Shown here: positions 1-60,624 of the stretch, one piece after another | How positions within the stretch are numbered: position 1 is the stretch's first letter | How the letters are laid out: each line of letters opens with the position of its first letter | Assembly (NCBI GenBank): GCA_038998335.1 | Contig: JAVZHQ010000001.1 | Location: 576,001-640,000 of the forward strand | Source of the DNA: Candidatus Aenigmatarchaeota archaeon | Lineage (GTDB): Archaea; Aenigmatarchaeota; Aenigmatarchaeia; CG10238-14; SCSR01 | Length of the DNA: 64,000 nucleotides | Reading direction: 5' to 3' | Notes under the pieces: generated by a model | Database searches by the model: none | What the model was told of the DNA's origin: nothing | The model's input: the letters and a program-made list of their open reading frames with translations, nothing else | Program-made: the position numbers and the translations under genes

Positions 1-3000
1 TCACCTAACACAGAAAGAATTGTTGTATGGAAAACTTGGGTCCCAGACGATGCACGCGGAACCTATACAGCTCTTTTTACTATTCAGACGCAAGATAAAA
101 CAGTAACAATACAAAGGAATTTTGAGGTTTATACTTTTCCTATTGTTATTTATCAAGCATCACCAGATTGGATCATAGCCAGAAGGACAGGTGTAAAATA
201 CAGAACTGTTTCTATTTGTAATTATGGTGATTATAACCTTACTGTTAATATTACGGAAATTAATTCCATGCAAGGAGGCACCACAGTTACTGCTTATCCT
301 ACCGCAAATATTACTACTTCTACTAGAGTAGAATGGTGGCTAAAAAGCATACCAACATCCAGATGTTTTATATACAATTTGACTTACACAAATCCGGGGG
401 ATATAGATCCTGGCCTCGAAGAATTCATTGTTATGGTCACTTATATCAATCCTTCTACTAACCTAGTTGAAACCTTAACAGACACCTTTTCAACAATTCA
501 AATTGATGCCAGAGATAAACCACAACTTAATGTAAGATTGTTTCCAACTCTTGTAAACGCTAACAATACTCTGGTCTCATTAGTCATTAGCAACAATGGA
601 AGAACTATTGGTATGGCTGTTTCACAAATAAGACTTTATATACCAGCAGGATTTATACCCTATCAATTCTCTTTAACTCCTGATACAGGATATCCAATCG
701 GATCTGCTGAAGAAGGTTGGGTTGTAACATGGTCGCCTTACTCAACAAACAGCTATCTTTATTCTATAGGCGTTGGGGGATCGGCAAGTTTAACCTTTAG
801 ACTTAACGTCTCTGACATTAGAAATTTTTCACCTGGAGGTAAAATTTTTACTGTCACGATATCTGGTTATCCGACTACTATTGATTCAAATACTTTAAGG
901 ATGCTTCTCTTTCCTACCGCAAAGTTTGTAGTGGAAAGAGAAGGTCCGCTTTTAAAAACAATAAGATATTACAATACTACACCAGCAGATGAACTGTTAG
1001 ATTTTCCAACTTTTTTTGTTTGTGGTAATTTTACAACAAAGTTACAAGTTTTTAATAAAGGAAACTTGCCAGCTAATAATTTCAACATAACTGAAAATAA
1101 GAATAATGTGAGTGTAACTCATCCTAACGATTTGCAATTTTCTTCTTTTGCTCCAACACCAAGTTATTACCTTCAATCTCGACTAATAAACTGGGATGGT
1201 AGCATAAATTTCATAGCTACAGGCAAAGATAATGCGAAAAACTATTCTTATTTAATTTCTGTTCCTTACCAGACAAATGGAACTTTTACTTTCTTTGCTC
1301 AACCAAAGAATGGAACTTTTACTTTCTTTGACGAAAATTACACAATTTTTATAGCATGCGGTGCTTCTTTAAGTGTTAGCGAACCAACAACAAAAAAAGG
1401 AGAAATAACTAACCCAACAATTTATGCTGGTGATATTTTCAACATTTCTTCAACAATTTATAACGATGGGCCAGGAAATGCAAGCAATGTTATAGTCGAA
1501 ATCAACTATACAAACACAACTCCCATTTCAGGCTTAGAAAATCTTGTAATTAAAAACTTTACCCAAGAAATTAGCAACTTAACTTACTTCGAAACAATTG
1601 GCCCAAAACAATCTAAAGTTGCTCATGTTGATTATACTTACATCGTTAATACAAGCGGTGTATCTCCAGGAACAATAAGGTTTTGCATAAAAGCAAACGC
1701 AACAGAAAATTCTAGTGAAGTTATAGCATGTAAAGATGTAACTCTAAATGCACCACCAGCAGTAATTGAAATGGAAAACCCGCTAATAATTTCTGATGAA
1801 ACCGGAACTTCAATCGGTTCTTGGGGTTTCAACTTCACTTTTAACATAAGCATTAGAGTTAGCAATTCAGATAATGATGTAGCTGTTTGTGCTTACTTTA
1901 GCAAAACTGGCACTGAACCTTGGAAGTTAGTTAGTTGCGATAGCTATCCTGCTCCAGGCTCATCTACAGGGCAATGGAGAAATTTCACTTTTAAGTTTGA
2001 TGCTGGTTGTGAAGATATAGGTTCGCCCGTATTTGTAAAATTCAATGCAACAAACAATGCAGGAACAACAAATTCAACCTCAACAACTTTTGCAATAACA
2101 AAAGATCAAGTGATATTTGAGGATATAATTGGAAATAACACAGAAACAAGAAGAGGAAAAACAACAACCTTACTTGCATTAAGAGTTAGGGATGCTAACG
2201 GAACTTTAATTACGAACTTACCAATAACTTTTTATGTAACGTTAGATGGCTCTATTTACGATTCTGGAACAACCAATTTAACTAATGCTTCTGCTTATGC
2301 AAACTATTACTTCCAAGCAAGATGCTCGCCAAAATATCAAGTAGGTTATCAAAGATGGAAAGTTATTTTAAGTAACGATGCATGCTACCAAGACAATTCA
2401 ACAGAAAGCTACTTTAATCTATCAGTACTAGTTACAGGAGATATTATTCTCAATTTTGTAAGACCAGATGGTCTGACAAACTATACACAAGAGCAAGAAG
2501 TTCCATTCTTGGGAGCAACTACTGATGATTGTGGAGATGCATTAACAACAACAGTAAGATATTTTGCAAATAAAAGTGAGCAAAGCTTTGAATGCTCTCC
2601 GGTAAGCCAAGTAGGAGCTAACGCTTACACTTGCGACTGGCAAACTTATATTTCTACACCTATGGGTTGGTATAATGCTACTATGATTGCAAACAGAACT
2701 TACCATTATTCAAACAGTACTGCAAATCTCGGCTTTCCAGGTTTATTCTATTTGTTCCCAGTAAAAAAACTTGAGAATCCTTCAGCTATGCCAACAACAG
2801 AAGGTTGGGGTTATAGAAACTGGAATTTCTCTGTAATAGCAAGCTCAGGAGATTCAGAAAATGTTTTGAATGTTAGCTTGTACATGGCAAAATCCTGGCC
2901 TCCTACAACAAAGTGTGATGCTCCAACTTGCCTAAACCAAACTCCAACAGAATGTTTTAATTGTATAGGAGAAACAAAGTTCTGGTATCGCAACTTTTCA

Positions 3001-6000
3001 GCTAACGAGCAAGGAACTTGGTATTATCAGTTTAAAATGGACGGAAAAGAAACTGAACAAGTTTTATCTGTTAACGTAGAAAAAGATGATAGTTTGATAG
3101 AATATGCAGAAGGAAACAATTCTTTTGCTAAGTATCAGCCTGCTCAAGCTGCAAAGCTTGTTGTAAGAGTTTTTGACTTGGATGCTAATACTTACAACTT
3201 GAATCCTCCTGCAAGCGTTAACTTCAGAATAAAGTATAACGGAGTTTACGATAGAATTGTAGGAAGCAACACAACCAATTCTTCAGGCTATGCAGAATTT
3301 TATTTCATTCCTGATTGCAGCTTTAACGGTGGAAACCAGTATTGGTATGCTGAAATAAATTCAAGCGAACCAAACTACAAGCCAAACGTTTCGCAAGAAT
3401 TCAACATAAGCTTAGATGTTTCAGGTTGTGTACCGCAAGTAAAAGTTTCTGCATCTTATAACCCAAGAGAAGTTTTCCTCTATCGCAACTTTACTGTTAA
3501 CGCAAGCATAACAACAATCGGCCCAGAAGGAAGTCAAGCAAATAGCGTTTATGTTAACATAAGCTTGCCTTCAGGCTGGCAAGTTGACGAAATAACAAAA
3601 AGCTTAGGAAGCATACAAGTAGGAGAAGTGAAAACAGTTTGGTGGCATGTTAACGCTACAAGCTATGGTTTAGCTAACGTAACGATTTTTGCAAACTCAA
3701 GTAATGCTGGAAGCGATTCTTTAACTTCCAACAACTTTATAGTTTACAAGCTCAAAGAAGCTTCTCTTCCCTTAGAGTCATTGCCTGTTGAATTGCAAGG
3801 AAATGAAGAAAAAATATTTTCATGGCAGTGTGAAGCAGGAGAATACAGAATTGCCAACTTAACAATAGCTTCAGCAAACTTAACCTCTCAACCAAAAGAA
3901 GTTTTGCTGAGAGTTTTTGTTTATAATGGAAACGAATGGATTGATGTATTGCACAACTATAAAATTAACTTGACTTCAGAAAGAAAAGATTTTGTTCCTA
4001 TATTGCAGAATCAAATAAACGTTAACGAAACTGGCTATTGCAGAGTTAAAATAAGCAATTTAGGAAGCAATCCAATCAACCTAACTAGCTTAACTCTTTC
4101 AGCTTACTCCAACGAAACTGTTCAAATTCAGGATATTGAAGTTAAAGTTAAAGAGCAAACCACTACTGGAATAGAATCAAGCGAAGAATTTTTCAACGTT
4201 ACTGTAAGAATTGCAAACTCAAACTCTAACAGTTATTCAGGAAATCTTTGGCTCAACATTACAAACAGCTCAAGCTATTTAGTTTACTCTTCTTCTCAAC
4301 CTGTTAACATTCCACCTAATAGCATAGCTCTAATTAACTTTACAAACATACCAACTTCTAATTGGTTAGAAGATGATTACAACTTGAAAGCTTACCTAAG
4401 CTACAATTCTAAATCAACAGAAAGAGCAGAGCAACTTATATTCAAAAATATTATTGTTTCGAGCAAAACAAGCAGATGGATTTGCAACTCTTCAACCGAG
4501 CAATACAACGTTACAATAGTTCATCCTTTTGCTGATAGCGTAGAATATAACGTAAGCTTGGAAGTTCCTCCTGGCTGGAGCTTTAGCCCAAGCTATCAAA
4601 CAATAACTACAAACTCTCCTGGAAATTATACTCTAAGCTTTAACTTAACTTCAAGCAATGCTGCTAGCGAAATTGTAATTATTAACGCAACCGTTAATTA
4701 TACCTATCCTGGAATCCAAAAATCAAAAAAAGCAAGCTTTAGTGTAGAGGAAAGCAATTCTATAGCAATTCTAGAAGTGATAAGGGAAACTCCAAAAATA
4801 ATAGGAAAAGATACTGTCTTTGATTCTCAGCTAACCGTTCATAACAAAGGATGCGCTCCAACAAGCGGAACAACAGTAGTTAAAGAAGTTTTGTCAACAG
4901 GTTGGACTCCTGCAAATCCGGGAATAAAAACAAACGAGTACGGCCAAGACGTTCAACTAATTTCAAGCTCAGTTGATTTGATAAATAATGTAATAATATG
5001 GCAGCTTGGTTCGATAGGAGTAAACAAGTATGCAGTTCTAACTTATCAAGTTAAGTCTCCTCCAAGCCTAAGCCAGCAAGGAAGCTTAAGGTATAACGTA
5101 AGCTGGGAAGGTAAAAGCTTACAAGAAGAAAAGGCTTATTTCATTCAAACTTTCAATTATACAGAAGAACCTCACCTAGAATTTGATTTAGAAGTTTTGC
5201 AGCAAGCCGATTATCCATGGCCAGAACCAAGGTCAGCTCAGTTAAACAAAAACTACAACTATAGCTTAAAAGTAACCAATATTGGAGATAGCTTAGCAAG
5301 CAATTGGAATGTAAGCATAAAAATACCAGAAAGCTGCGAAGTCAAGCAAGTTTATAATTCAGGATTTTGGAATGAAACTTCTAGAAAAATAACATGGCAG
5401 CTTCCTGATTTGGCTGTTTATTCAAGCGTAAGACTTAACTTCACTTTAAACTGCTCTTCTGTAGGCAAACAAGTTTTTATAGCAGAAGGAATAAAAGATA
5501 CGAGAGAAGAAACAAGCTTTGTTAATGATACAAACATAAACTGCTTTGGTTCAAGCTGCTCGTTAACTCAAGCTTACAGCTTCACTAAACCAAGCAATGC
5601 AAGATATGAAAAACTGAAGGAAGCAAACTTTTTGATAAGTTATGAATGGAAAGGACAGAACGTAACTATCGGACAAGCTTCTGTTAGTTTTGCTGATGAT
5701 TTGCTTAATTACAAAATTGCTTGGCAGAATTATTCCTTAGGTTCTTCTAACGGAAAGGTTTGGGGCAATTATAGCATAGACGAAAACGAGCAAGAAAATT
5801 ACATTCTAGCAAGCAGGAACATAGCAATAAACGCTTATGCAGATGCAACTTATGAGCCGAAAGCCAATTTAACAGTTGAAAAAATTGTCTACACTTGGAA
5901 AACTGGAAGGCTTTTCGAAGAAAATCAAGAGCTATTCGCAAAAATTAAAGTCTATACTTACACTCCTTTGCTTGAAAACTCAACCTTATACATAAACGGA

Positions 6001-9000
6001 GATAAGACAAGAACCATAGGAGGTTGGGGAGAGCAATTCAACTTTAGCGTGATGGTAAGAGATAGGTTTGGTCGTGACGTTACAGTTTATGCATGGCACA
6101 GAAAAGGAATTGCTGATTATTCGCTAATAGGAAGCTGGATTTGCTATTCTTGCTTAGAATGGACTCAAGTCAATTTCAGCTATGATTATGTTGGTTCAGA
6201 CATAGGAAGCTGGGACTTCAAGTTTAACGCAAGTAATGCAGATGGTACAAGCGAATTGCCAGGTTATGGCTATACCGTAGAGGCTGATGAAATAAACGTT
6301 TACAACATTACTCCAAGCTGGAATTCCATAGTTAACAGAAGCCAGCTAACAAACTTTGTTTTGCAAGTTTGGGATCGCGACAATCAAAGCTATCCTGGTT
6401 ATTTGTTACCTGGACAAGCAGATGAGGGAAGAGGAAAAATATTTATTTCTAAGTTTGGTAGCCCAGAAACTTTTGATTCATCGCCAGCAATATCAGCAAA
6501 CGAAACAGGTCATTTAATAAGAAGCATGCAAAATTCTTCTGATAGTTGGTGCAAGGTTAGCGATTACTATCTAGGACAAAACTATTGGAAAGGAGGAGTT
6601 AGCGGAGCAACAACTTATAAAGATAATATAACTCAAGTAATGCCTTTCTGGTTAATGGGTGATTTGTCTAACAGCTACTTAACTCAGCCCTTAGGTGAGC
6701 AAAACTTTACTCGAGGCCAAACAATAAATTTCAACGGAGTAATAAAAGATGATTGCAACGATGTAAAAAGCGATGCTGCTAAGTTTGGAGCTGAGTATAG
6801 AATTTCACACGGAGAAACAACTTACGTTATTGTTTCTGATTTAACCTCAGCAAGCTGGCAGGTTCCTCAAGACGCTCCTCTTGGTTGGTATAATGTAACG
6901 ATGATAGCTTTTGCTGAAGGAAGTGAAGCTGGAAAATACTGGAACGGAACTTTCTTCAAAGAAAATGCATTCTTCATAGCAACAGTTCCAAAACTTGATA
7001 ACCCAGAAGTCCAGCCTTTAGTGGGAAGCTGGGAAATTAAGCCTTTCAACTTTTCAGTTTTTGTTACTAGTGAAGATGGAGAAACAGTTTTAATAAAACT
7101 CTGGCTTAAAAATTCAAGTATTGATTGGTACGTAGAAAACTTAACTTATTGCATTAATTGCAACAATTACTTCTTCCTAACTCAAAAGAATTTCACTTGC
7201 GAAAATATTGGCGAGTGGCAAGCAAAGTTTAACGCAAGCTCTTCAACAAGCTTTACAAACGAAACTCAAATAATCAATTTTAACGTTACCAAATCAGCAA
7301 TTTCAATAAATTATGCCGAAGGAAATAACACGATAGTAAACAGAAGCGATTCTGCGTTAAGAAATTCTGTTAAGCTTGCTGTTCAAATTTGGAATTTGGT
7401 CTTGAACAATTACACAACTGTTATTCCAAACGATAACGTTAAGTTCTGGGTTCAAACTGGTTTAGATTGGAAGGAAGAATTTGAAACAAGCAATGAAACG
7501 CACTATTATTTAGATTTCAACCCAAGCTGTGAATACTTGCCAGGAATAAGAAAATGGAAAGTTAACTCAAGTCATGCATGCTATGCTGACAACAGCTCAG
7601 AGGAATTTTATGTCACAATAATTGCTAATTTAACAAACAACTTAGAAAAACCTGACGGAAGCGTTAACTATACTGCTGGGAGTTTGATAGATTTAAACGG
7701 AACGATAATAGATGATTGCTTGCAAGCAGTAGTAGGAGCTAACGTTAGGTTTAAGCTTCAATCAGGCTCTAATGTTTATTACTGCCCAAGCTCAGGCTAC
7801 GTAACTAACGCTACAGGTAATTTCTACAATTGCACTTGGGATTCTTCTGGGAAGCCAGGAGGATGGTACAACGTTACGATGGAATCTTTCAAAGATTATC
7901 ATGTAAACGGAATTGTTACAAGAGAGAATGCTTTCTTCTTGATTACTCCAGTTGAGCTTATTTCTCCACAAGTAAGTCCGAGCATAGGAGGATGGGGCGA
8001 ACTCCACAACTTTTCTGTGATAGTAAATCATTATGCTAACGTTAACGTTTGCTTGTTAGAAAGAACTCCTACAAGCGAATGGAGCGTTACTGAATGCAAG
8101 TTTATAGAAAACCCAAGTAATAAACTTGTGAATTTCACAAAAACTTATTCTTGTGAAGATTTGCAAGCAAGCAGCTTGTGGTACTTTGCTTTTAATGCTA
8201 GTGAACCAGGAGTTCCAGAAACTTATTCAAACACTTCTCAGCTAAGCCACACTTTAGAAAAGAATGATATTGCTTTCATTTACTTTGAAGGGAATGAAAC
8301 TCAAGTTAACAGAAACGGGAGTGCTACAACTAAGTTTGTTCTTTATGTTAACGATACTGACAGAAACTTGCCAGCTTATACTTTGCTTGCAGGCTCTCCA
8401 AAGCCTGTTGTTGGCTTTAGAATTCACAACGGCACAGCTTACCTAACAGACGGAACAAACACAACAAATTCTTCTGGTTACGTTAGCTATTACTTCAATC
8501 CTTCTTGCAGCTATGAGGTTGGAAAAAGAAATTGGTATGCTTTTACTTCAGGTGATTCTTGCTATAAAGATGCAAGCTCTTCAGTTTTTAACGTAACGAT
8601 AATTGGAGATTTAGTTCCAAACATCACTTACCCAAGCGGAGAAACTTACTACAGAACTCAATCTCTTTATGTAAACGTTTCAGGTGATGTAAGAGATGAA
8701 TGCAACTTAAATTACATAAGCAATGCTTTAGTTAACTTCACACTTTACTGGGCAGCAAACCCAAGCGTTCAATACCATTGCGAAGAAATTGGAAATTATG
8801 GAAACGGAACTTACAACTGCACTTTTGACGCAACAAGCTACGATGAAGGTTGGTATCATGTAAGAATGAACGCTTCAAACGTAGAATATTACAATAATGG
8901 AAGTGATTATAAAGAGTACAGGTTTAAGATAGTTCAAGTTTGGCAGCCTCCTGTTCTAGAAGATGAAACTGTTTTGCCTGAGCAGGATTGGGGATGGGGT

Positions 9001-34185: not shown

Positions 34186-34190
34186 CCTCC
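34186..34190 (-). promoter_or_regulatory. Shine-Dalgarno GGAGG for the receiver gene
   Basis: Minus strand reads GGAGGtttgaaGTG; spacing is 6 nt. Confidence 0.7.
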
Positions 34191-34229
34191 TTAAATATTT
34201 ATTTTTTTCTCTGATTAATATTTATTTGA

Positions 34230-34913: not shown

Positions 34914-34949
34914 TGCTTGGTATTTATTTAAGGAAGTTAAACTTAAATT

Positions 34950-35937: not shown

Positions 35938-35938
35938 A

Positions 35939-50473: not shown

Positions 50474-50974
50474 TCACACCAAGCTTTCAAGAAAACTTAA
50501 GTTTGGCTTCCTAACTATAACATCTATCTGCCCTGAATAATTCCCTATTCTTGAAACTTTTGAAGTGTTAAGAAAAACTACTATCGTTTCAGACTGGTTT
50601 GAGTAGAGAATAAAATTGTCTTTGCTAAAGCTAACAAAAGGTTTGATCTCGCCGTAAACTTTAAAATAAACTCTTACTCTACTTTTTTCAAAGTTTGAGA
50701 TAACAACTTGCCTTCTTCCGTAACCTGATAAAGGAATTATCCCAAAGTTAAGGTTCCATGGATCTGCAACTAAACCTACTGTTATGTTTTTTTCCTCAAA
50801 AGGAATTATCTCTACTCTTAAAGGATAGCTTGTTACTTCAAAAGTGAAGAAAAAGTTTGAAGATTTTTGAAAGCTCATGTTTTCTACTAAGCTTTTTGGT
50901 TCAGAGTACCCTGGAAATAAAGCCATAAGCACTGCTAGAAAAATTAAAAACAAGATAAAAATTTTACTCTTCAT
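50474..50974 (-). CDS. Small secreted single beta-sandwich protein (~166 aa)
   Basis: ATG at 50974 gives a signal or anchor MKSKIFILFLIFLAVLMALFP; LNFGIIP and terminal GNYSGQIDVIV strand. Confidence 0.78.
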   Translation of the reverse strand: MKSKIFILFLIFLAVLMALFPGYSEPKSLVENMSFQKSSNFFFTFEVTSYPLRVEIIPFEEKNITVGLVADPWNLNFGIIPLSGYGRRQVVISNFEKSRVRVYFKVYGEIKPFVSFSKDNFILYSNQSETIVVFLNTSKVSRIGNYSGQIDVIVRKPNLSFLESLV

Positions 50975-51911: not shown

Positions 51912-51959
51912 ATTATTAATTTGAAGTTTCAAAATTTTATTCTTAAAAAATTATCTTTA

Positions 51960-52006: not shown

Positions 52007-52882
52007 ATGAAGTTTGGAAAAATAGCTTTTTTGATTGGTTTAATAAGCATGCTAGGAGCAGCTTTTTTAGTAAGCTTAACAAAACCAGCTTTTTCAGCAA
52101 CCTCAAACCAAACAAACGTTACTGTAGAAGTAAAAGGAGTTTGCCAGATAACAGTTGCACCAACAAACCATACCTGGTTTAGCGTTACTCCAGGCTCAGA
52201 AGGAGGAGTAAAAACATTAAACATAAGAAATAGTGGTTCAAAAAACCTTACAAATATTTATGGCTATGTTGACACACTCACAGTAGAAACCACTAACCCA
52301 ATTCCTACAGGTGACCCTTCAAGATATGCTTCCGGTGGAGTTCTTGTTTTAAACGCAGGAAGTGGCTTTTATTATGTAGGAAGGTTGGAGTGGAATGTGA
52401 GTAAACCAGCAGGAGCAGGTAATACTAATTGTGATGCAACATGGTCAACTTGGGGTTGGTACAGAAACGCTACTGTAGGAAATTATCTTTGGTGCATGGT
52501 TAACGGAAGCGACGGAACTTGTAATGCAAGTAATGCAAAAATCTATATAGAATCTGATGTTGACACAGGTGACCCAAGTACAAGAGACCCAGATAAAGGT
52601 GGCAACGTTGAAAGCCAAGCTCCAGATTGGGCAATATTTGGTTTTAGTGATGGACCTTTGGCTGGGCACTGTGTAGCCTTATACAAAGACTGCACAAAAA
52701 TATACATATATAAATATGATCCAACCTTTGGCGACTGCGATATGGAAAGTTTCATAAGAACAGAAGCCTTGACACCAAGCTCAGAGTTTTCAGTTAGCTT
52801 AGACGTTTGGGTACCAAAGGGAATTCCAGCAGGATGGTTAGCTTCTAATTGGCTAACTATTGAAGGAAGCTGCCCACCATAA
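52007..52882 (+). CDS. Secreted, unanchored, disulfide-containing 291-aa protein; candidate major filament subunit
   Basis: Signal peptide ending AFS-A; N-terminal strand NQTNVTVEVKGVCQITVAP; LNIRNSGSKNL; terminal LDVWVPKGIPAG..NWLTIEG; 8 Cys; no TM anchor. Confidence 0.85.
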   Translation: MKFGKIAFLIGLISMLGAAFLVSLTKPAFSATSNQTNVTVEVKGVCQITVAPTNHTWFSVTPGSEGGVKTLNIRNSGSKNLTNIYGYVDTLTVETTNPIPTGDPSRYASGGVLVLNAGSGFYYVGRLEWNVSKPAGAGNTNCDATWSTWGWYRNATVGNYLWCMVNGSDGTCNASNAKIYIESDVDTGDPSTRDPDKGGNVESQAPDWAIFGFSDGPLAGHCVALYKDCTKIYIYKYDPTFGDCDMESFIRTEALTPSSEFSVSLDVWVPKGIPAGWLASNWLTIEGSCPP

Positions 52883-52935: not shown

Positions 52936-52966
52936 AAATTTATTGTTAAAATTACAATTTGATATT

Positions 52967-54226
52967 ATGAAAAAGTTTCTTTACCTCTTTATCATCTCAA
53001 TTGTAGCAATTCTTATTTTTAACTTCATTTCTAACTTTTTTTCTTTAAGAATTACAGGCTTTGTTGGAGCTAACTTTTCCGTTAACATTTCAGAAGTTTT
53101 GAAAGGAGAGCTTTTGATTAGCTATAAAGAGGAGTTAAACTGGGGTGAGTTTCAAAACATAACAGTAGATTTTTTAAACACAGGAAGCGTTCCTTTTCAA
53201 GAAAAAATTGAAGTTAGAATATATTACAACTACGGAGGAAAGCTTCAACCTTTAGCCTATTATTATGATTCCATAGTAACTTTAAAGCCAGGTGAAAGAA
53301 GAAGTTATAGAGTTAACTATCTTCCGCCTACCATAGGAACCTATTATATAAAAGTAAGGGTTCCTTATGACGGAAAAACTGTAGAAACATGGAAAGCTTT
53401 TATAGTAATTTATATTCCTCCTCCACCTCCTGTTCAAATAATCACCCTGCCTCCTGAAGTTCCTGCTCCACCTGTTGAAGTAGTTGAAACTGGAAAGCCT
53501 GGAATGGAAATAGATTACCCAGAAAAAATAACTATAGCTCAAGGAGAGTCGAAACTTTTTAGTGTTATAGTTAAAAATACAGGACAAGTTTCTTTAAGGA
53601 ACATGAGGCTAGCTATTTCCCTTCCTAGCTCTTTTAGCATAGAGGTGAACCCGAAAGAAATCTTTAAAGTTATACCGAACGAAACAGCAGTTTTTCTTGT
53701 CTATTTAACAATTCCGAACCAAACTTTACCTGGAATCTATCCTTTGGATTTTGAAGTGATAACCGACAAGATAAAAGAAGGGAGAAGAATAAGCGTAGAA
53801 GTTGTTTCTGGTTTACCAGATATAGAAAAAGAAGTAAAGGAAACGATCCAATACTACGAGTACTTAATCTCAGAAATCCAGAATCAAATAGATGCTGCTT
53901 TTTTGAAAGGAATTGACGTAAGCAAAGCCCAAGAAAGCTTGGATAAAGCAAAAATAGCCTTAGAAGAAGCAAAAACCTATTATAACCTAGGAAAATACTT
54001 AGACGCTAAGAAAAAGCTAGATGAAGTAAAAGATCACTTACAGGAAACAGTTTTCCAGCTTTCCTTAGCTTTAATTCCTGTTTATTATCCTGCTTTTCCT
54101 TTCTTACCTCTTATTCTTCTTCTGATAATAATCCTAGCAATAATTCTAGCACTGATTCTTTCTAGAAGAAGAAAGAAAAAGGAAGAGCTTAAGAGACCAA
54201 AGCTTTTGAGAGGAATAGAAACTTAA
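52967..54226 (+). CDS. Membrane protein (~419 aa): N-terminal hydrophobic segment, Ig domain, Pro linker, NEW3/CARDB-like domain, helical bundle, C-terminal TM
   Basis: ATG at 52967; FLNTGSV..LKPGE; PPPPVQIITLPPEVPAPP; VKNTG; GIDVSKAQESL; TM followed by RRRKKK. Confidence 0.85.
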   Translation: MKKFLYLFIISIVAILIFNFISNFFSLRITGFVGANFSVNISEVLKGELLISYKEELNWGEFQNITVDFLNTGSVPFQEKIEVRIYYNYGGKLQPLAYYYDSIVTLKPGERRSYRVNYLPPTIGTYYIKVRVPYDGKTVETWKAFIVIYIPPPPPVQIITLPPEVPAPPVEVVETGKPGMEIDYPEKITIAQGESKLFSVIVKNTGQVSLRNMRLAISLPSSFSIEVNPKEIFKVIPNETAVFLVYLTIPNQTLPGIYPLDFEVITDKIKEGRRISVEVVSGLPDIEKEVKETIQYYEYLISEIQNQIDAAFLKGIDVSKAQESLDKAKIALEEAKTYYNLGKYLDAKKKLDEVKDHLQETVFQLSLALIPVYYPAFPFLPLILLLIIILAIILALILSRRRKKKEELKRPKLLRGIET

Positions 54227-54249: not shown

Positions 54250-54504
54250 ATGGGACTTTTTTCACCTTTTGTCTACACAAACAAGCAAGGAAAAAAGTTT
54301 TGGCTTCATGTTAGAGAAAAAGGGAAACAAAAAATCTATTATTTTTCAAAAGACCCTACAGGAGCTTTAAGGGATTTACCAAAAGGTTATGAAGTTGTAG
54401 AAAACGAAATAACAGGAATGCCTTTTCTAAAGAAAAAGGAAGCAAAGGGCTTTCTCTCAGTTTTTAAACCAAAAAAAGAAGAAAAACAAGAGCAACAAGC
54501 TTAA
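54250..54504 (+). CDS. Small basic hypothetical protein (84 aa)
   Basis: YTNKQGKKFWLH..IYYFSK..DLPKGYEVVEN..TGMPFLKKK looks like a compact conserved domain; the ORF fills the intergenic space. Confidence 0.8.
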   Translation: MGLFSPFVYTNKQGKKFWLHVREKGKQKIYYFSKDPTGALRDLPKGYEVVENEITGMPFLKKKEAKGFLSVFKPKKEEKQEQQA

Positions 54505-54529: not shown

Positions 54530-55006
54530 ATGAAATTTAGCAACCATTCAGTAGTAACACTTCAAATACTCTTAAAAATAATTATAGTTAACATAATAGT
54601 CTTGCTATCACTTGTTTCTGTGCATGAGTTTGGCCATTTAGTTATGGGCTTACTCACAGGCTGCTCAAGCGCAAGAATTGTTCTTTTTGACACAAGTAGA
54701 GAAGGCCCTTACACTGAGCTTTTTTGCAATTCTTCTAACCCTATAACTTATTCAGGAGGAATTTTATTTAGCTTAGCTTTTTCTTCGCTTTTCCTTTTTT
54801 TAAAAGAAGCTGAAGACAAAAAGCTTTTTTTTGTAGCTGTTGGTTTATCCTTAATGCTTTCTGGCCTTGACATAATAGCTTTAACTTCTACCTACTTTTC
54901 CTTTTATATTACGACAATTTTTGGTTTTTGTCTTACAATCTTTGGAGAGTACAACATAACTTTAAGCTACGCGAAAAAAGAAGAGCTTTTAAAGTACTAC
55001 CTTTGA
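54530..55006 (+). CDS. Small membrane-embedded HExxH metalloprotease-like protein (M50/site-2-protease-like)
   Basis: VHEFGH at the end of the first hydrophobic helix; 3 more TMs; SGLD as a possible third zinc ligand. Confidence 0.65.
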   Translation: MKFSNHSVVTLQILLKIIIVNIIVLLSLVSVHEFGHLVMGLLTGCSSARIVLFDTSREGPYTELFCNSSNPITYSGGILFSLAFSSLFLFLKEAEDKKLFFVAVGLSLMLSGLDIIALTSTYFSFYITTIFGFCLTIFGEYNITLSYAKKEELLKYYL

Positions 55007-55051: not shown

Positions 55052-55813
55052 TTGGCAAGGGTAATAGGGATAATTTCTGGAAAAGGAGGAGTTGGAAAAA
55101 CAACTTTAACCGCAAACTTAGGAGCTTCTTTAGCACATTTTTTCAAAAAAAACGTTACTGTTATAGATTGCAACATAACAACTTCCCACTTAAGCCTTTA
55201 CTTGGGAATTCACTTTTGTCCAACTAGCTTGAACAAAGTTTTAAGGAATGAAATCTCCATAGAAGAAGCGCTTTACAAGCATTACAGCGGAGCTAACATT
55301 GTTCCTGCCTCTTTATCCTGGAAAGATTTGGAGGGCGTGGATGTAATTCAGATTAAAGATAGTATAAAAAAGCTTTTTGACAAAACTGATATAATATTGC
55401 TCGATGCTGCTCCTGGCCTAGGAAGGGAAGCTTTGGCTGCTATAAAAGCTTGTGATGAAGTTATTTTTGTTACCATGCCTTACGTTCCTTGCGTTATGGA
55501 CATTATAAGATGCTTAGAAGTTGTAAACGAAATTGGAGTTAAGCCCTTAGGAATTGTTTTGAACATGGTTGGGAATGAAAGGTATGAGATGAAGAAAAAG
55601 GAAATAGAGCAGCTTACTGGTTTGCCAGTGATTGCTTCAATTCCTTCAGACAAAAATGTTTTGAAAAGCTTAGCTTTAAGGACTCCTGTTGTTCTTTTTA
55701 ACAAAAAATCAAAAGCAAGTAGAGAAATAATAAAACTTGCTGGCAATTTGATAGGAGAAAATTATAGAGAAGAAGGATTTTTCTCAAGAATTTTCAAAAA
55801 GCTTAGGTTATAA
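55052..55813 (+). CDS. minD: MinD-family ATPase with C-terminal amphipathic membrane-targeting helix
   Basis: TTG start; SGKGGVGKTT; IDCN; DAAPGLG; GIVLNMV; C-terminus EGFFSRIFKKLRL. Confidence 0.92.
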   Translation: MARVIGIISGKGGVGKTTLTANLGASLAHFFKKNVTVIDCNITTSHLSLYLGIHFCPTSLNKVLRNEISIEEALYKHYSGANIVPASLSWKDLEGVDVIQIKDSIKKLFDKTDIILLDAAPGLGREALAAIKACDEVIFVTMPYVPCVMDIIRCLEVVNEIGVKPLGIVLNMVGNERYEMKKKEIEQLTGLPVIASIPSDKNVLKSLALRTPVVLFNKKSKASREIIKLAGNLIGENYREEGFFSRIFKKLRL

Positions 55814-56437
55814 GAATTTGTAAATTAGGAAAGAGATTAATAAAATTAAAGCTATTGCTGAAGCTAAAATTGTAAATCTTAAGTCAAAGCTTGGTAAAGA
55901 GATTCTTGAACTTATTTTTTCTTCTTCACTTACTTGCTTGCTCTTTTCTTTTTGTTCAACTTCCCTTTTTTCTTGCTCTGAAGAAAAATGTTCAAGAATT
56001 TTTATCTTGAAAACAAAAGTTTTTTCTTGAGCAACTTTAATTCCTGAATCTAAGCTTTCTGCTCTTGTTTTTATTCTTATTTCATTCTCTCCTTTTGCAG
56101 AATCTAAGGCTTTGATCAAAACTTTTACAGGAAATGCTTTAACATCACCTACCGAAAGCTTAACGTATTCTCCTTCCTCATAAGGAGGACCAATTTTAGA
56201 AGCGTTTAACAAAAATTCTTTTGGCTCAACTATTACAACAAAACTTTCTTGTGAAAAAGGTTCAAGAGTAACTAAACAAGGAGAGTTTTCAAGATTCCAG
56301 AAAAGAAGAGTAAATTCTTTCGTTTCTCCTTTTACCATTTCTGCATAATTGCCTTTTTGCAAGCTTCCAAAGCTTAAAGCTTTAGCAGAAGGGATAAACA
56401 ATAAAAAAATTATTGCAATCAAAATTTTCTCTTTCAT
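55808..56437 (-). CDS. Secreted single-Ig-domain protein with C-terminal TM anchor (~209 aa)
   Basis: ATG at 56437, 1 bp after the upstream stop; signal peptide ..IPSAKA; charged linker; TM FTILASAIALILLISFLIY. Confidence 0.8.
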   Translation of the reverse strand: MKEKILIAIIFLLFIPSAKALSFGSLQKGNYAEMVKGETKEFTLLFWNLENSPCLVTLEPFSQESFVVIVEPKEFLLNASKIGPPYEEGEYVKLSVGDVKAFPVKVLIKALDSAKGENEIRIKTRAESLDSGIKVAQEKTFVFKIKILEHFSSEQEKREVEQKEKSKQVSEEEKISSRISLPSFDLRFTILASAIALILLISFLIYKFL

Positions 56438-56438
56438 T

Positions 56439-59189
56439 TCAATCACACAACGAAGAGCAATTTCCGCATATTGTTATGGTTCCTTTATAAATTCCTGCAT
56501 AAACGCTTGGTACAGAAAGCCAATAATAAAGTGTTAAGTTTGAGTTTGGTGGAAGAGCAGAATAAGCAAGTTTGTAATAATAGTCAAGAGGATAAACTGT
56601 GCTTGGGTTGTAAATATTGCTTGAATTGCTCCAGGTTAAATTGCCAACAGCTATAACAGAATTGTAAGTTGAATTTGTAAGGTCTGTTCCTTTAATCCAA
56701 ATGTTCGGACTGCATGCTCCTATGACTGTTATGTTGTATAAATTGTTTTCATTTCCAGGGGCAGGGTTGTTTTCTGCTGGAGTGTTTGGAATTAAAAAGC
56801 CAAAGTCTATAAAGTCCCAAGACAGAATCAAGCTTTCTATTTCTATTCCAGAAACAATAGTTATTGTTGAATTTTGGGTGTGGTTTTGCTGAACTTCTGT
56901 TAAAGAAGAATTAAAAAGTACGCCAATTTTCCAGACCGAACTAACATCACCGCTTGCATTAACAACCCAAGTTAGATTGCAGAATTCATTCTCATCTAAG
57001 GGATTTGTTGGACAAGCTTTCGTTGCTAAAGCAGAAGCTTCTTGAATAAAAAATGGTTTATCTCCTTGAGTTGTGCTTATTGGTGTATCTGGAAAAGGAG
57101 AAGAAGCGTTATATCTTACGGTTCCGTAAACGTTGCCACAACTTCCAGCTTTACAGTAAACTGTTGCGTTTATAATAAAGGTAGAATTCTGAGGAACGTT
57201 GTAGCTTAAAGGCGGTGATGAAAGCCAAGCTTCCAGATAAGGTGGTGAAGGAAATGGACATACTGTTAGGTTATTATAAATTATGCTGTAGGGTGAAGAA
57301 GTTCCTTTTCTATAGATAAACTCTACACAATCTTTTGACTGATACTTTGAATTTGGATAAACATTATCTCCTGTAACGTCTGTAGTAATCCAGACAGGAT
57401 TTCCCCAACTTCCAGAATTATTCCTGTAAATTATGTTCCATCCTCTATTATTAGTTGTATCGTTTTGCTGCCATAAAACAAGAGGATAACCTAAGGAATT
57501 GGTTGTTATGCTTGAATATTGAGCTTTGCTTGTATCTGTTATAGTATCAATTCTTTCTCCGGTCCAGGTTGAACCATAATCAGAGCTTGAGTTAAAGTAT
57601 ATTCTATTATCTGAAGAATAATAGGAAACGTAAACTTTGCTTCCGTTATAAGTTATGCTTGGTGTATAGAAAATCATAGCATCTGAAGAGATTAAATCTT
57701 TATAAGAAGACCAGCTAACTCCAGAATCAGAGGAATTTTTATAAGTGATATAATAATAAAAGTTACCTGTATCATAATACTTTTCCCTGACGACAACATG
57801 CATTCTATCGTTTGAGCTTCCGTTTCCGTCAACAGCAATAGAAGGCTCGTAATAATAAGAACCATACTGAAGTATTCTTCCTACATATGTTTCATAACCA
57901 TCAAATACAACTTTTATTGGACCCCATGTATTCCCAGCATCGCTCGAATTAAAAAACTCTATATCAGTTGCATCTTCATTATCCTGATAAACAACATAAA
58001 TTCTTTGCCCTTTTCTTTCAACGCTAACATATTCTCCTATTCCACTTGAATAAGGAACTTTTTCTTCAAAGCTTGCTCCGTTGTTTTCTGAGATATAAAT
58101 TACAACTCCCGAAGTTCCATTTCTATAACCTATTGTTATATTATTGCCATCACAAGAAATTGAAGGCAAGCCTTTTGAGCCAGTTGAATTAACTATTGTT
58201 CTATTAACTATCCAAGTTTTACCGTTATCTATGCTTCTAGCATAACTTATAGTATTAGCATCGTATTTCCAAACAACATGTATATAATTTTTTCCATCCC
58301 TACAAATTGCTCTTTGGTTCGGAGAAAAAGGAGTTGTAGTTGTTTGAAGATAGGATGTAGTTGTATAGCTGAAAGGATTTAAACAAGAACTTCCATTCCA
58401 GTTATTATTAGTGTCGTTGGCATAAACGCACCACCTTATAGTGCACCCAACAGTTGAGTTTATTAGTACACTAAAGTTACTCCATGCTTCAGTTCCAGAC
58501 AAGCTCATACCCGAAATATTTTGTAAGCTCCCTGTACAATTATCAAAGCTGAAAATGGCATAGCTTAACCCAACATCATCAGTCCATTTCAAAGAATGTT
58601 GTACTACAGTTCCTGCTATAGTTGAGTTTGTTGAATTAAGAGAATAAATTGGCGGTGAAATTTTAACAGTTATTGTTCTTATAGTAGAAGCATTCACTTC
58701 ATTTGCAGAATCATTAGCATACTGTCTCCAACCTATAACTTTCCCTTCACAAACTGCTGGAATAATTTGAGTTTCGTTGTGCCAAGTAGAGTTAACGTTG
58801 TTTCTTGCTGTAAAGGAAATGTTTACCCAAGTATCGCAATTAGCTCCAGAAGCATTCCAAGAAAACCAAGTATAGTTTATTCCTAAGCCCATTCCTGCTG
58901 CACCAACAACATCAGTCCAGTTAACACTAAACTTTACTGTCTCTCCAACCTTTGGGTTTGTACTATTTTCAGAAGGGGTAAACCATTGTGGAGCTTGATT
59001 CTCGCAGCCATTAGTTACTATTCCATCATCGTTGAACCAGCCAGGATTGCAAGTATAAGTGCAACTTCCTGTAGAAGAGCAAGTACAACTTCCTCCACTT
59101 CCTAAACAGCAATAATAAGCCAAAACACTTTTTATACTTAAAAAGAAAAGGCCTAAAAAAATAAACACGATGAAATACTTTTTTCTCAT
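56439..59189 (-). CDS. Secreted multidomain protein (~916 aa): Cys-rich N-terminus, two Ig-like domains, BNR/Asp-box (sialidase-like) beta-propeller, C-terminal pilin-like domain
   Basis: Signal peptide ..IKSVLA; Asp-boxes SIDNGKTW, SENNGASF, SSDAGNTW, SSDSGVSW and SSDYGSTW; C-terminal IDFGFLIP..WLSVPSVYAGIYKGTITI; no TM anchor. Confidence 0.88.
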   Translation of the reverse strand: MRKKYFIVFIFLGLFFLSIKSVLAYYCCLGSGGSCTCSSTGSCTYTCNPGWFNDDGIVTNGCENQAPQWFTPSENSTNPKVGETVKFSVNWTDVVGAAGMGLGINYTWFSWNASGANCDTWVNISFTARNNVNSTWHNETQIIPAVCEGKVIGWRQYANDSANEVNASTIRTITVKISPPIYSLNSTNSTIAGTVVQHSLKWTDDVGLSYAIFSFDNCTGSLQNISGMSLSGTEAWSNFSVLINSTVGCTIRWCVYANDTNNNWNGSSCLNPFSYTTTSYLQTTTTPFSPNQRAICRDGKNYIHVVWKYDANTISYARSIDNGKTWIVNRTIVNSTGSKGLPSISCDGNNITIGYRNGTSGVVIYISENNGASFEEKVPYSSGIGEYVSVERKGQRIYVVYQDNEDATDIEFFNSSDAGNTWGPIKVVFDGYETYVGRILQYGSYYYEPSIAVDGNGSSNDRMHVVVREKYYDTGNFYYYITYKNSSDSGVSWSSYKDLISSDAMIFYTPSITYNGSKVYVSYYSSDNRIYFNSSSDYGSTWTGERIDTITDTSKAQYSSITTNSLGYPLVLWQQNDTTNNRGWNIIYRNNSGSWGNPVWITTDVTGDNVYPNSKYQSKDCVEFIYRKGTSSPYSIIYNNLTVCPFPSPPYLEAWLSSPPLSYNVPQNSTFIINATVYCKAGSCGNVYGTVRYNASSPFPDTPISTTQGDKPFFIQEASALATKACPTNPLDENEFCNLTWVVNASGDVSSVWKIGVLFNSSLTEVQQNHTQNSTITIVSGIEIESLILSWDFIDFGFLIPNTPAENNPAPGNENNLYNITVIGACSPNIWIKGTDLTNSTYNSVIAVGNLTWSNSSNIYNPSTVYPLDYYYKLAYSALPPNSNLTLYYWLSVPSVYAGIYKGTITICGNCSSLCD

Positions 59190-59202
59190 ATCTATCACTT
59201 CT

Positions 59203-60279
59203 TTAAGTCGGACATGGTGTAGCAGAATAATAACAACAACTAGTTGAAGAGGCAGGAGCTGGCCGGCAAGTGTTTGAGCTTAAGTAAGAGTTTGGATAAG
59301 GAGAAGGACAGCTTACTGTACAAGATGTTAAAATGTAGCAATTTTCTGTTGTACAAAGGAGCCCCCAATTACTATAGTCGCAAGAGCAAGTCCCTCCAAC
59401 ATTGCAAGCTAAAGTATAACCAGAGGCATCTTCCCAGTAAAATTCTGAATTTTTCTCTTCACCAGGAGCAACGCTTCCTATGTGCTGCTTTAAAGTTATT
59501 GCTGAATTGTACTGCCCTTCGTCACTAACGTTCAACTCATAATCATAATCGCTTAGCCAATCAAGCCTTATCCTCCATAAAAGCAAATCCTTATAATTTC
59601 TTTTGTGAACTTCATACTTCTTTTCTTTTAAATAAGTTGAGTTGAAAATAGCGTTCAAACCATGCAAATCATAAACTTCAACTTCATTCAAAGTTGAATT
59701 TATAACGAAAGCATTATCTTCATAAGAATTGTTTATTTTTATCTCAGTAGTTTTCCACCAAAACCAAAGGTCATCGATAGCTTTTGAACCAGTATTATAG
59801 CCATAAAAGCTTACGCTAAGCTTTCTATCGTTATCTTTAAGGAAATACCTAACCTTAAAGTAAAACTTATAACCTCCTGGCGCATTATACTCCTTTGAAG
59901 TACCGTTAAGTTCAACCCATGTTGCCTCTTCGTTTGTTGCGTTAGTCCATGTTAATTCAAAAGAATCTGTGCAAATTCCTTCGAATTTAAAATTCCCTAC
60001 AGTTGCGTTTATGCAAATCCAATTTCTGCTCCACCAGTTTGGCAAGTCTTGAGTTATCTGAAGGCCTGAAGTTTTATTTACCCAGTAAACCTCTTGATCG
60101 TTCCAAATTTTAAAGGTTTGTGTTGTTGAATTGTACTCAAGAAAAGTAGAATTTCTTGGTTTACATTGAGCTTTAACCAAGGTAAAATTGCTTTCAACTA
60201 ATTTATCTTGTTTTATTTGGATTAAACTCAAAGCTAAAATAAAAACTAGTGCAAGTATTATTATTTTTAAAATTTTCAT
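59203..60279 (-). CDS. Secreted or N-anchored 358-aa protein with beta-rich body and Cys-rich C-terminal tail
   Basis: N-terminal hydrophobic helix; 11 Cys in the last ~70 aa; same strand as, and adjacent to, the Asp-box gene. Confidence 0.82.
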   Translation of the reverse strand: MKILKIIILALVFILALSLIQIKQDKLVESNFTLVKAQCKPRNSTFLEYNSTTQTFKIWNDQEVYWVNKTSGLQITQDLPNWWSRNWICINATVGNFKFEGICTDSFELTWTNATNEEATWVELNGTSKEYNAPGGYKFYFKVRYFLKDNDRKLSVSFYGYNTGSKAIDDLWFWWKTTEIKINNSYEDNAFVINSTLNEVEVYDLHGLNAIFNSTYLKEKKYEVHKRNYKDLLLWRIRLDWLSDYDYELNVSDEGQYNSAITLKQHIGSVAPGEEKNSEFYWEDASGYTLACNVGGTCSCDYSNWGLLCTTENCYILTSCTVSCPSPYPNSYLSSNTCRPAPASSTSCCYYSATPCPT

Positions 60280-60342
60280 CTACTATTATTTCTTGGTTTA
60301 AACTATAAATTTAATTCAAAAGAAAGAAAAAAAGCAAAAAAC

Positions 60343-60624
60343 CTACTTCTCAAAGAGAACTTCATAGGCAACAAAAAGTGTTCCTATCAAAGCTAGAATC
60401 CATCCTATTGCTGCGAATATTGTATCTAAACCAATAGTTCCAAAAGTTAAGTAGTTAAGAACTACTTGGGGGAAAACTCCTGCAAACAGGAAGAAAACTC
60501 CTGCAGTTGCCAGGAAACCAAAACCCTTTTCTGATTTTTTCGTAAACTTTGCGTACTCAGCTAAGGCTATTCCTAGAAGTAAAGCTATACCCCATTCAAT
60601 AAAGGTTGCTTCAAACAAAGCCAT
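60343..60624 (-). CDS. Small 3-TM membrane protein (93 aa)
   Basis: Three hydrophobic segments; AGGTGG SD-like site upstream; T-rich tract downstream on the minus strand. Confidence 0.8.
   Translation of the reverse strand: MALFEATFIEWGIALLLGIALAEYAKFTKKSEKGFGFLATAGVFFLFAGVFPQVVLNYLTFGTIGLDTIFAAIGWILALIGTLFVAYEVLFEK

Follow-up and report, generated by a model that had tools for sequence, protein, structure and literature searches.

Does a run of surface-protein genes that starts with a giant surface protein–ATPase fusion encode one dedicated cell-surface apparatus? The question is raised by a stretch of 64,000 nucleotides, hereafter the window, which occupies C1:576001-640000 of the genome of a Candidatus Aenigmatarchaeota archaeon (1,009,365 bases, 9 contigs, 33% GC). 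About 6% of the DNA of this small genome is given over to the conserved surface-protein gene set described here. A first-pass annotation had interpreted the window as one surface system with a motor, subunits, an adhesin, positioning ATPases, a protease and sensors, and the elements that it listed (giant fusion, coiled-coil gene, secreted proteins, MinD pair, protease and signalling cassette) are all present in the places it had assigned to them. The locus is real, conserved and unusual. Our integrated reading is that it encodes a conserved Aenigmatarchaeota cell-surface apparatus of three linked modules, a reading that we hold tentatively, with a probability of roughly 0.45.

All open reading frames (ORFs) of the window were scanned against Pfam, with further scans against NCBIfam, and the giant protein was scanned by hydropathy for transmembrane (TM) segments; no tRNA or Rfam match was found within the window. 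Metagenome contigs from four hot-spring runs, belonging to three studies, span the window over 26-46 kb and 30 of 30 bins, and the gene order in them is unchanged. One of the four runs is nearly identical to the window and may be its source, and two others are about 2% divergent, as judged from the longest listed pieces; no RNA run is among the 14 runs listed for the stretch; contig 'joints' in this cover, with sides of 20-41 letters in K/E-rich sequence, were treated as noise.

The giant surface protein and its ATPase

The 5′ part of the window is taken up by the giant gene and the gene that abuts it:

1..31467, + strand: giant surface protein–ATPase fusion, frame open from the first base of the window
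30280..30363, + strand: sole internal TM helix of the giant protein (aa 11,009-11,036 by the hydropathy scan; helix 2-27 of the model of the tail)
30364..31467, + strand: predicted cytoplasmic HerA-clade P-loop ATPase, with Walker A at 30523-30543, Walker B (DE) at 30910-30915 and a C-terminal helical tail
31468..33168, + strand: cc566, putative cytoplasmic coiled-coil partner, whose ATG abuts the TAA of the giant gene, with GGTGGA just upstream

The giant gene is present as the first-pass annotation described it, but its 5′ end lies outside the window: the true start, an ATG at C1:573256, is 2,745 bases upstream, and the complete gene encodes 11,403 aa. The protein is laid out as a signal anchor, at least 19 diverged Ig-like super-repeats of about 330 aa, one TM helix and a HerA-clade P-loop ATPase. 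The hydropathy scan yields two hydrophobic segments only, aa 10-31 (the signal anchor) and aa 11,009-11,036, and this single internal helix has about 11,000 aa of repeats on one side and the ATPase on the other; the part upstream of it is predicted to lie outside the cell and the part downstream inside. A repeat unit of about 334 aa has 18 further copies between aa ~1,520 and 8,944, and because these are only 25-36% identical, the repeats must be old and diverged rather than an assembly artefact. Their Pfam Ig-like matches are weak (NEW3, 1.3e-14; Big_1, 8.6e-12; DUF11; MG2). The protein carries 507 N-X-S/T sequons (4.45 per 100 aa), given which it is of interest that a 410-aa ORF resembling family-2 glycosyltransferases, an identity read from the sequence only, lies together with a 704-aa secreted protein at C1:560119-564104, 9-13 kb upstream of the giant start.

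The last ~365 residues of the giant protein form the ATPase tail, which is cytoplasmic by topology. It matches DUF87 (E 1.3e-11, 45.4 bits against a cut-off of 23.2) as well as HerA_C, and its sequence matches the HerA chains of the PDB (E 2.3e-7). In 56 aligned tails G75, G78, G80 and K81 of Walker A and D204 and E205 of Walker B are invariant, as are R208 and the block R227-G233, and on these motifs the ATPase is judged to be catalytically intact. The AlphaFold model of the tail (pLDDT 88.3, pTM 0.87) is best matched by Foldseek to hexameric HerA 4d2i (E 7e-12, prob 1.00, TMq 0.51), followed by Sir2-HerA, DUF4297-HerA, the coupling protein TcpA (4.7e-9) and FtsK (2.3e-8). The Walker A (GxxGxGK[ST]), the Walker B (hhhhDE) and the fold are those of the FtsK-HerA superfamily.

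Within that superfamily the tail is not HerA proper, nor does it reach the curated score of a Ced ATPase. It shares with HerA, TcpA, VirD4 and FtsK the RecA-like core, the intact Walker A and B motifs and the best structural matches, and with the coupling proteins and FtsK a TM segment N-terminal to the ATPase. As HerA proper it was rejected: it scores 37.3 bits with NF040937 (cut-off 800) and 24.3 with NF040819 (cut-off 970), and a TM helix about 35 residues before the first core strand replaces the N-terminal barrel of HerA. Moreover, the Pfam scans found no NurA, Mre11 or Rad50 family within the window, and no Sir2 or nuclease partner is present here. Identification as a Ced ATPase fails in the same manner, by a wide margin from the curated cut-off (NF053655 CedD, 37 bits against 600, Walker A region only); no CedA-type polytopic membrane or pilin protein was named in the Pfam and NCBIfam scans, which included no dedicated CedA model. 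We know of no HerA, coupling protein or FtsK in which each chain has one TM helix after a variable ectodomain, as in this family with its N-terminal extensions of ~60 to over 13,000 aa.

TM-anchored FtsK/SpoIIIE, TraB, VirD4/TcpA and EssC move macromolecules across membranes, and the locus could likewise encode a trans-envelope translocase, with a HerA/FtsK-type ring pumping DNA or unfolded protein at a host contact made by the giant protein, in analogy to Ced, to the coupling proteins of type IV secretion systems and to EssC of type VII secretion systems. The 'uptake machine' of the first-pass annotation is of this kind. The ATPase lies so near the TM helix (~35 residues) that the ring would face the membrane, and its structural neighbours include HerA with DNA, TcpA and FtsK. 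The best NCBIfam rows for the tail are likewise HerA and the DNA-translocating CedD, yet at 37 bits against cut-offs of 600-800. In addition, no polytopic channel protein, nuclease or DNA-binding partner is conserved in the cluster, every exported protein in it appears to carry a Sec-type signal, and a single TM helix from each subunit is little to build a pore from; a translocase is, in our view, distinctly unlikely. Still less can be said for a defence system or mobile element using a HerA-type ATPase. The PADLOC HerA models match the tail, but partially only (best E 1.2e-14), and such a reading would have to accommodate an ATPase fused to an extracellular protein, a chromosomal synteny that is stable across the order, a GC content of the window close to that of the genome, and a window in which no Sir2, DUF4297, nuclease or integrase partner is found. 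We give it almost no credence.

The ATPase family is large. Among 1.84 billion representatives, the tail finds 1,073 proteins at E<=0.001, of which 367 also pass E<=1e-30, and nearly all of the 150 matches listed carry the tail behind an N-terminal extension of roughly 60-7,300 aa. Among species-representative genomes, 326 of 367 pattern matches encode a relative. A word-indexed search confined to proteins of 680-2,000 aa gave 828 family members at E<=1e-20, labelled as Aenigmatarchaeota, Woesearchaeota, Micrarchaeota, Nanoarchaeota and a few non-DPANN metagenome-assembled genomes that may be misbinned; where sources give family members a name at all, it is a generic one, in most cases 'DUF87 domain-containing protein', 'ATP-binding protein' or 'hypothetical protein'. 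In the literature we found neither a surface protein fused to a HerA/DUF87 ATPase nor this cluster described, although an earlier mention in the 2004 FtsK-HerA survey is possible.

Conservation of the gene set

Three sets of genomes bear on whether the neighbours of the giant gene belong with it: 80 related loci with flanks of up to 10 kb (at least 3 kb of downstream sequence in 68 of them, at least 8 kb in 47); 13 genomes from five families of the order, in which 10-80 kb around the giant gene were compared; and a phyletic profile of 101 genomes of the order, which are related and many of them incomplete, so that its counts are descriptive. Besides cc566, the cytoplasmic and membrane partners in the window are:

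48711..49658, − strand: MinD315, MinD/ParA ATPase with an N-terminal winged-helix domain (ParA E 3.6e-21)
54250..54504, + strand: p84, small putative cytoplasmic protein, unrelated to other window proteins in iterated profiles
54530..55006, + strand: M50B-like HExxH intramembrane protease candidate (HEFGH; Peptidase_M50B)
55052..55813, + strand: MinD253, MinD/ParA ATPase with a putative C-terminal amphipathic tail (ParA E 9.8e-21)

The coiled-coil gene is the most constant of the neighbours. A homologue of cc566 lies directly downstream of the ATPase fusion, on the same strand, in 74 of the 80 loci, and a coiled-coil gene is found near the giant gene in all 13 genomes. The protein has no Pfam match, and its profile finds nothing but coiled-coil noise in the PDB (best E 0.048). 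In one locus (L049:1169-3196) a p84 domain (p84 profile E 2e-31) is fused to the C-terminal part of a cc566 homologue, which links these two cytoplasmic proteins. Three short members of the ATPase family, P0064, P0102 and P0134, have a ~250-aa ectodomain, a TM helix and the ATPase followed by a K/E-rich coiled coil of 330-490 aa. The homology of such post-ATPase coiled coils to cc566 is unproven, because BLASTP against P0064 and P0102 found nothing (best E 0.65 and 10).

Both MinD proteins were correctly called by the first-pass annotation: each has GKGGVGKT, and each matches ParA (76.2 and 74.7 bits against a cut-off of 27.1). The C-termini of both may be amphipathic tails that bind the membrane. 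A third MinD-like gene (277 aa, GKGGVGKT) lies on the minus strand at C1:570640-571739, about 1.5-2.6 kb upstream of the giant start, where a 119-aa coiled-coil-looking ORF on the minus strand overlaps it; the gene cluster may thus extend past the 5′ end of the window. The protease candidate is marginal by score (Peptidase_M50B, 26.6 bits against a cut-off of 26) and has HEFGH in a TM helix as well as an LSGLD stretch, which may correspond to the Asp-containing second metal-binding motif of M50 proteases.

Near the giant gene, a MinD gene is found in 12 of the 13 genomes, big1954 in 10, s769, s322, the M50-like gene and s427 in 9 each, s245, s172, s291 and p84 in 7 each, the C-terminal module of BNR919 in 6 and s212 in 2 (these surface proteins are described below), and the metabolic and housekeeping genes that flank the cluster in the window in none. 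Within the shorter reach of the 80 loci, the downstream genes include big1954 in 45, MinD in 26, s427 in 19, the M50-like gene in 16 and s291 in 7. The core of the cluster is therefore syntenic across five families of the order and not a chance neighbourhood, the outcome for which the first-pass annotation had looked to gene-neighbourhood comparison.

The phylogenetic profiling that it had also proposed gives a concordant picture, with s322, s291 and the ATPase family co-occurring across the 101 genomes. Of these genomes, 43 have s322 and 45 have s291 (both in 39, s322 only in 4, s291 only in 6, neither in 52). The ATPase family, at E<=1e-40, is present in 49 genomes; s322 and the ATPase family are both found in 37, s322 only in 6, the ATPase only in 12 and neither in 46. 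By our reading of the table, 33 of those 49 genomes have the giant type (at least 56% identity), and 12 of these 33 show uninterrupted giant frames of 8,909-14,236 aa that end in the tail. In the giant-type loci of the species-representative genomes the tail is 57-88% identical. A paralogue type of ~2,200 aa (about 50-55% identity) is also common in the order. The genome that holds the window has one, a 2,184-aa ATPase fusion at C1:15595-22149 whose tail is 51% identical. It sits in a mini-cluster (C1:6507-23843) where secreted proteins of 1,383, 663, 195, 217, 232 and 239 aa precede the fusion and a 303-aa coiled-coil protein and a 257-aa MinD follow it. This paralogous mini-cluster is a smaller second copy of the logic of the giant cluster.

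Roughly half of the genomes of the order, genus g6 in its entirety among them, have neither s322 nor s291 nor the ATPase family, for which reason the gene set must be accessory. In genus g6, which belongs to the same family, 9 of 9 genomes lack the three; several of these are ~90% complete, in 3-10 contigs, and the genus is a clean natural presence/absence contrast for comparative work.

A candidate fibre and the other surface proteins

The proteins that may make up a fibre are encoded in the 3′ half of the window:

50964..51932, − strand: s322, with signal peptide, two beta-sandwich domains and C-terminal TM anchor
52007..52882, + strand: s291, secreted PapD-like beta-sandwich with a conserved N-terminal strand, candidate fibre subunit
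55808..56446, − strand: s212, small TM-anchored secreted protein, directly following the BNR919-type gene
56439..59198, − strand: BNR919, secreted, with a variable head (weak BNR_2) and a conserved C-terminal module of ~260 aa

s291 has 93 homologues, all of them lacking a descriptive name, and no Pfam match; its Atlas feature score to a WxL cluster is 0.78. The monomer is modelled with a pLDDT of 90.7 as a PapD-like/ASH beta-sandwich with insertions. Its N-terminal part is different: residues 23-47 are non-strand in the monomer (DSSP), the blocks covering 21-40 have pLDDT 53-59, and a conserved A-x-A cleavage site lies directly before what is predicted to become the N-terminal strand. Every one of 72 sequences has V/I/L at positions 38, 40 and 42, and 71 of them have a hydrophobic residue at position 45, an alternating pattern. 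When three mature copies were modelled together, the ipSAE scores were 0.78, 0.71 and 0.64 (median 0.71) and the best of three controls scored 0.00; the mark for this measure is attained by 20 of 30 proteins whose solved structures are pairs and 1 of 23 whose solved structures are single chains. The trimer runs agree in at least 94% of contacts, with partner pLDDT of at least 87. Residues 32-45 of one copy face residues 46-62, 109-113 and 265-289 of the next, so that the N-terminal strand is flanked by the first and the last strand of its neighbour, as in donor-strand complementation. These models predict that s291 self-associates head-to-tail through its N-terminal strand, and this prediction is new here.

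The fold of s291 recurs among proteins of many kinds. VIA-align retrieves ASH domains, chaperone-usher chaperones and pilins, TasA, TLP-1b, WxLIP and CanA: Caf1M, FimC, SafB and YadV at Z 6.9-5.8 over ~90 residues, in the range of common beta-sandwich likeness; the TasA fibre 8aur at Z 5.8 (root-mean-square deviation 3.7, 131 residues) and TLP-1b at Z 5.4 (139 residues); WxLIP 9i1y at Z 5.8, CanA at Z 5.4 and the ex vivo cannula at Z 5.1. With the s291 profile no s291-like domain was found in the giant protein, big1954, BNR919, s212 or s358, and hence no tip adhesin with a pilin domain has come to light among those five. Two s291-family copies are present in each of six genomes (G024, G089, G027, G049, G035 and G044); in G024 (L013:9973-12076) they are ~340 bases apart on the same strand, as is expected of a major and a minor subunit.

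In most genomes where both were matched, s322 adjoins s291, often divergently. The TTG start listed for s322 is probably too early (51911-51932); the Met at residue 8 starts at least 90% of 56 homologues and the Atlas record, and the true start is probably this residue, at 51911. The protein has no Pfam match, and its nearest language-model neighbours include WxLIP (DUF916/DUF3324) clusters (score 0.95, 12 of 30 matches; structural TM 0.43-0.47). By analogy, s322 may be a chaperone or anchor of the s291 fibre. BNR919 is built differently: in 5 other genomes its C-terminal module forms the end of a protein of 640-1,236 aa, and in all five a homologue of s212 directly follows the module-bearing gene. 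Proteins of the BNR919 type, with their variable head on a constant tail, may be adhesive heads.

The remaining surface proteins of the cluster are:

40563..46427, + strand: big1954, 1,954-aa surface protein with C-terminal coiled-coil stalk and TM anchor and a ~500-aa module in common with the giant protein
46420..48729, − strand: s769, secreted TM-anchored beta-sandwich (CarboxypepD_reg)
49733..50470, − strand: s245, secreted beta-sandwich related to s322 and s427
50474..50992, − strand: s172, secreted single beta-sandwich, a domain also in the giant protein, big1954 and the paralogous ATPase fusion
52943..54226, + strand: s427, with NEW3 beta-sandwich domains, coiled-coil stalk and TM anchor
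59203..60279, − strand: s358, secreted, with Cys-rich C-terminus, in 0 of 13 relatives compared
60343..60624, − strand: tm93, small membrane protein, in 0 of 13 relatives compared

Ten N-termini (big1954, s769, s245, s172, s322, s291, s427, s212, BNR919 and s358) look Sec-type, as read by eye and not with a prepilin-specific tool. The claim that the secreted proteins share modules held for a subset, namely big1954 with the giant protein and, by BLAST, s427 with both. Iterated profiles, run on a local set of 4,191 ORFs, relate s322, s245 and s427 to one another and place the s172 domain in the giant protein, big1954 and the paralogue, but they found no relatives of s291, s212, s358 or p84 among the window proteins. 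The small secreted proteins have no Pfam or NCBIfam match except NEW3 in s427; CARDB and MG2 were also detected among the window proteins. Dense Cys-rich stretches occur at the C-terminus of s358 (59203-59400) and after the signal peptide of BNR919 (59000-59198), and these could form disulfide-linked contacts. The membership of tm93 in the cluster is doubtful, because none of the 13 relatives has it.

The stalk-plus-anchor layout of s427 and big1954, readable from the sequence, presumably resembles that of SlaB, and one may ask whether the locus is an S-layer or envelope biogenesis cluster, with big1954 and s427 as lattice and stalk proteins like SlaA/SlaB and the other genes as envelope accessories. 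The NEW3, CARDB and MG2 domains and the high sequon density would be in keeping with it. An essential wall would, however, not be missing so often: the half of the order without s322, s291 and the ATPase family includes genomes more than 90% complete, in 3-8 contigs. As an S-layer cluster would also explain neither the ATPase fusion nor the predicted s291 polymer, we hold it to be very unlikely.

Between the coiled-coil gene and big1954 lies a signalling cassette (33165..40481):

33165-33797, − strand: CheX-like protein (weak, 18 bits against a cut-off of 27)
33808-34179, − strand: receiver (Pfam)
34230-34913, + strand: MEDS (Pfam)
35179-35937, − strand: polytopic membrane protein
35939-37627, − strand: HAMP-HisKA-HATPase kinase (Pfam)
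37615-39195, − strand: SBP_bac_5 solute-binding protein, overlapping the start of the HAMP kinase by 13 bases (37615-37627)
39192-40481, − strand: triple-PAS protein (Pfam)

The first-pass annotation had counted this cassette as part of the system, a claim that has to be dropped: near the giant gene, MEDS and the solute-binding protein are found in none of the 13 genomes and the CheX-like, receiver and kinase genes in 3. A receiver gene lies between the coiled-coil gene and big1954 in 5 of the 80 loci (L028, L032, L033, L040 and L045), four of which have the CheX-like gene and four the kinase gene. We read the cassette as an accessory regulator inserted at one site in some lineages, and not as core. 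The 13-base overlap of SBP_bac_5 and kinase hints at a binding-protein-dependent sensor. A 126-aa ORF at 34950-35330 (+), which has no family match and partly overlaps the polytopic gene on the opposite strand, probably represents no real gene, or else one with a shorter frame than listed.

One apparatus, and what it would be for

By its gene content, the locus is not a type IV pilus, an archaellum, a Ced, a chaperone-usher or a sortase system. As the first-pass annotation had noted, the Pfam scans of all window ORFs contain no T2SSE/PilB, TadC, prepilin peptidase or sortase, nor any usher family; T2SSE ATPases sit elsewhere in the genome, and the TadC/FlaJ platform, too, was not found in the window. 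The further claim, that the locus matches no known set, stands for the type IV pilus, the archaellum and Ced, but close analogues in logic exist among donor-strand filaments, to which the locus is, by analogy, closest, and in the WxL/Elr pilus.

The WxL/Elr pilus of Enterococcus is described, in the accessible part of the preprint (bioRxiv 10.64898/2026.10.17.759780), as having a membrane-anchored two-domain chaperone, ElrE, and no usher, and as confined to Bacillota. s322 has the ElrE layout of a signal peptide, two beta-sandwich domains and a C-terminal TM anchor; both systems have large adhesins with a variable head on an invariant attachment module, both are usher-free, and the N-terminal donor strand that joins s291 copies in silico (ipSAE 0.71 against 0.00) is a further likeness. 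In contrast, there are no WxL, DUF916 or DUF3324 matches here, no sortase, LPxTG motif or peptidoglycan, and the host is an archaeon; conversely, neither an ATPase nor a MinD nor a giant TM-anchored protein belongs to the WxL/Elr pilus, as far as that part of the source goes. Among archaea, donor-strand filaments comprise the threads (PMC9715654), whose assembly pathway is stated as unknown in the text available of that paper, bundling pili/TasA-like filaments (PMC9245690), cannulae (PMC12518558) and Tat-dependent bundling pili (PMC12337348). According to the accessible portions of these papers, they share with the present locus beta-sandwich subunits, Sec or Tat export, joining by an N-terminal strand and a lack of type IV machinery. 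s291 has no sequence match to these filaments, and its TasA and CanA fold matches are weak; a neighbouring ATPase fusion or MinD is not mentioned for them in those same portions.

Nanohaloarchaeota 'SPEARE' proteins are giant surface proteins of small-celled symbionts. These and the Omnitrophota giants resemble the protein described here in exceeding 5,000-10,000 aa, in their repeated extracellular domains and in belonging to ultra-small, probably host-dependent cells. For the Omnitrophota giant genes, the available text (bioRxiv 10.1101/2023.11.21.568195) records few archaeal proteins above 10,000 aa, most of them in Asgard, and mentions neither HerA nor Aenigmatarchaeota. The Aenigmarchaeota genome paper, in the part at hand, mentions as surface genes only those for the S-layer, the archaellum and the type IV pilus.

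In the first of the three proposed modules, a cytoplasmic platform would consist of the ATPase of the giant protein, cc566, p84 and membrane-binding MinD ATPases. Because the relatives of the ATPase are hexamers, the tails may form a ring hub at the inner face of the membrane that bundles several giant chains; cc566, p84 and the MinD proteins would organise the platform and place the hub on the cell surface, and ATP would be spent on assembly or remodelling and not on Sec export. In the second module, s291 would be exported by Sec, lose its signal peptide at A-x-A and polymerise head-to-tail into a thin fibre in which each subunit slots its N-terminal strand in between the first and the last strand of the one that follows; s322 would be the chaperone or anchor, BNR919 the head and s212 the foot of the fibre. 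The third would be made up of the TM-anchored stalk proteins big1954, s427 and s769, whose TM anchors the M50-like intramembrane protease might cut. The role of the ATPase, including its 'motor' character, and attachment to a host are what we infer; the 'sensor' and 'uptake' parts of the first-pass annotation are unproven. The most likely purpose of the apparatus would be attachment to another cell or surface.

The claim that all this is one dedicated system thus finds partial backing, from the synteny, the co-occurrence and the predicted s291 polymer, and parts of it fall away, the signalling cassette, s358 and tm93 not being conserved. Several observations also weigh against the three-module apparatus itself. 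No physical tie connects the ATPase and the fibre. The s291 complex score is the model's own confidence, for a job (three copies, own alignment) unlike those of the calibration, and part of the pass could be pattern memory, because solved donor-strand fibres exist. Foldseek found nothing in the PDB for the s291 model at E<=0.001, and its VIA-align matches are middling and generic (Z 8.3-5.1, within the common-arrangement range of the tool). s322 was rejected as a WxLIP member, with 1 of 56 family members hitting WxLIP_HBD (E 0.11), and its profile found TM noise only in the PDB and did not reach 9i1y. Genomes of genus g23 have the small-protein module ~24 kb upstream of the giant gene or on different contigs. 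In 10 genomes s322 or s291 occurs in the absence of the ATPase family and in 10 the reverse holds, about half of the order lacks all three, and the co-occurrence counts overstate the association because kin are not independent.

Some of these observations would be expected of a surface-protein island, in which envelope and adhesion genes are clustered by shared regulation or block exchange and act independently. The ATPase tail with its coiled-coil and MinD partners would then serve the giant protein only, and s291 would be one more secreted protein. That the order and side of the modules vary among families, that s322 or s291 and the ATPase family part company in the genomes just mentioned, that modules are common to some of the proteins only, and that s358, tm93 and s212 are poorly conserved would all fit such an island. 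It accounts less readily for the recurrence, across five families of the order, of roughly a dozen gene families around the giant gene, where the flanking housekeeping genes recur in 0 of 13 genomes, for the repetition of the same logic by the paralogous mini-cluster in the same genome, and for the tight adjacency of the s291-s322 and BNR919-s212 pairs. An island is somewhat unlikely in our estimation.

A bolder form of the three-module apparatus can be envisaged, namely a new, DPANN-wide class of archaeal organelle in which a HerA-type ATPase ring with giant tethers would be the ATP-driven base for the s291/s322 fibre and the adhesins, positioned by MinD and coiled-coil proteins. We consider this rather unlikely. 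If true, it would be the first known assembly machinery for archaeal donor-strand filaments, and a structure that grips hosts and possibly draws material from them. An archaeal counterpart of chaperone-guided, usher-free assembly would widen a picture that is so far limited to Bacillota, and an adhesin continuous with a cytoplasmic ATPase would, if true, couple a surface tether to the inside of the cell in a new way. Little is known of host attachment in uncultured DPANN lineages such as Aenigmatarchaeota, and the locus gives concrete candidates; it may be how small-genome, host-dwelling archaea hold on to their host.

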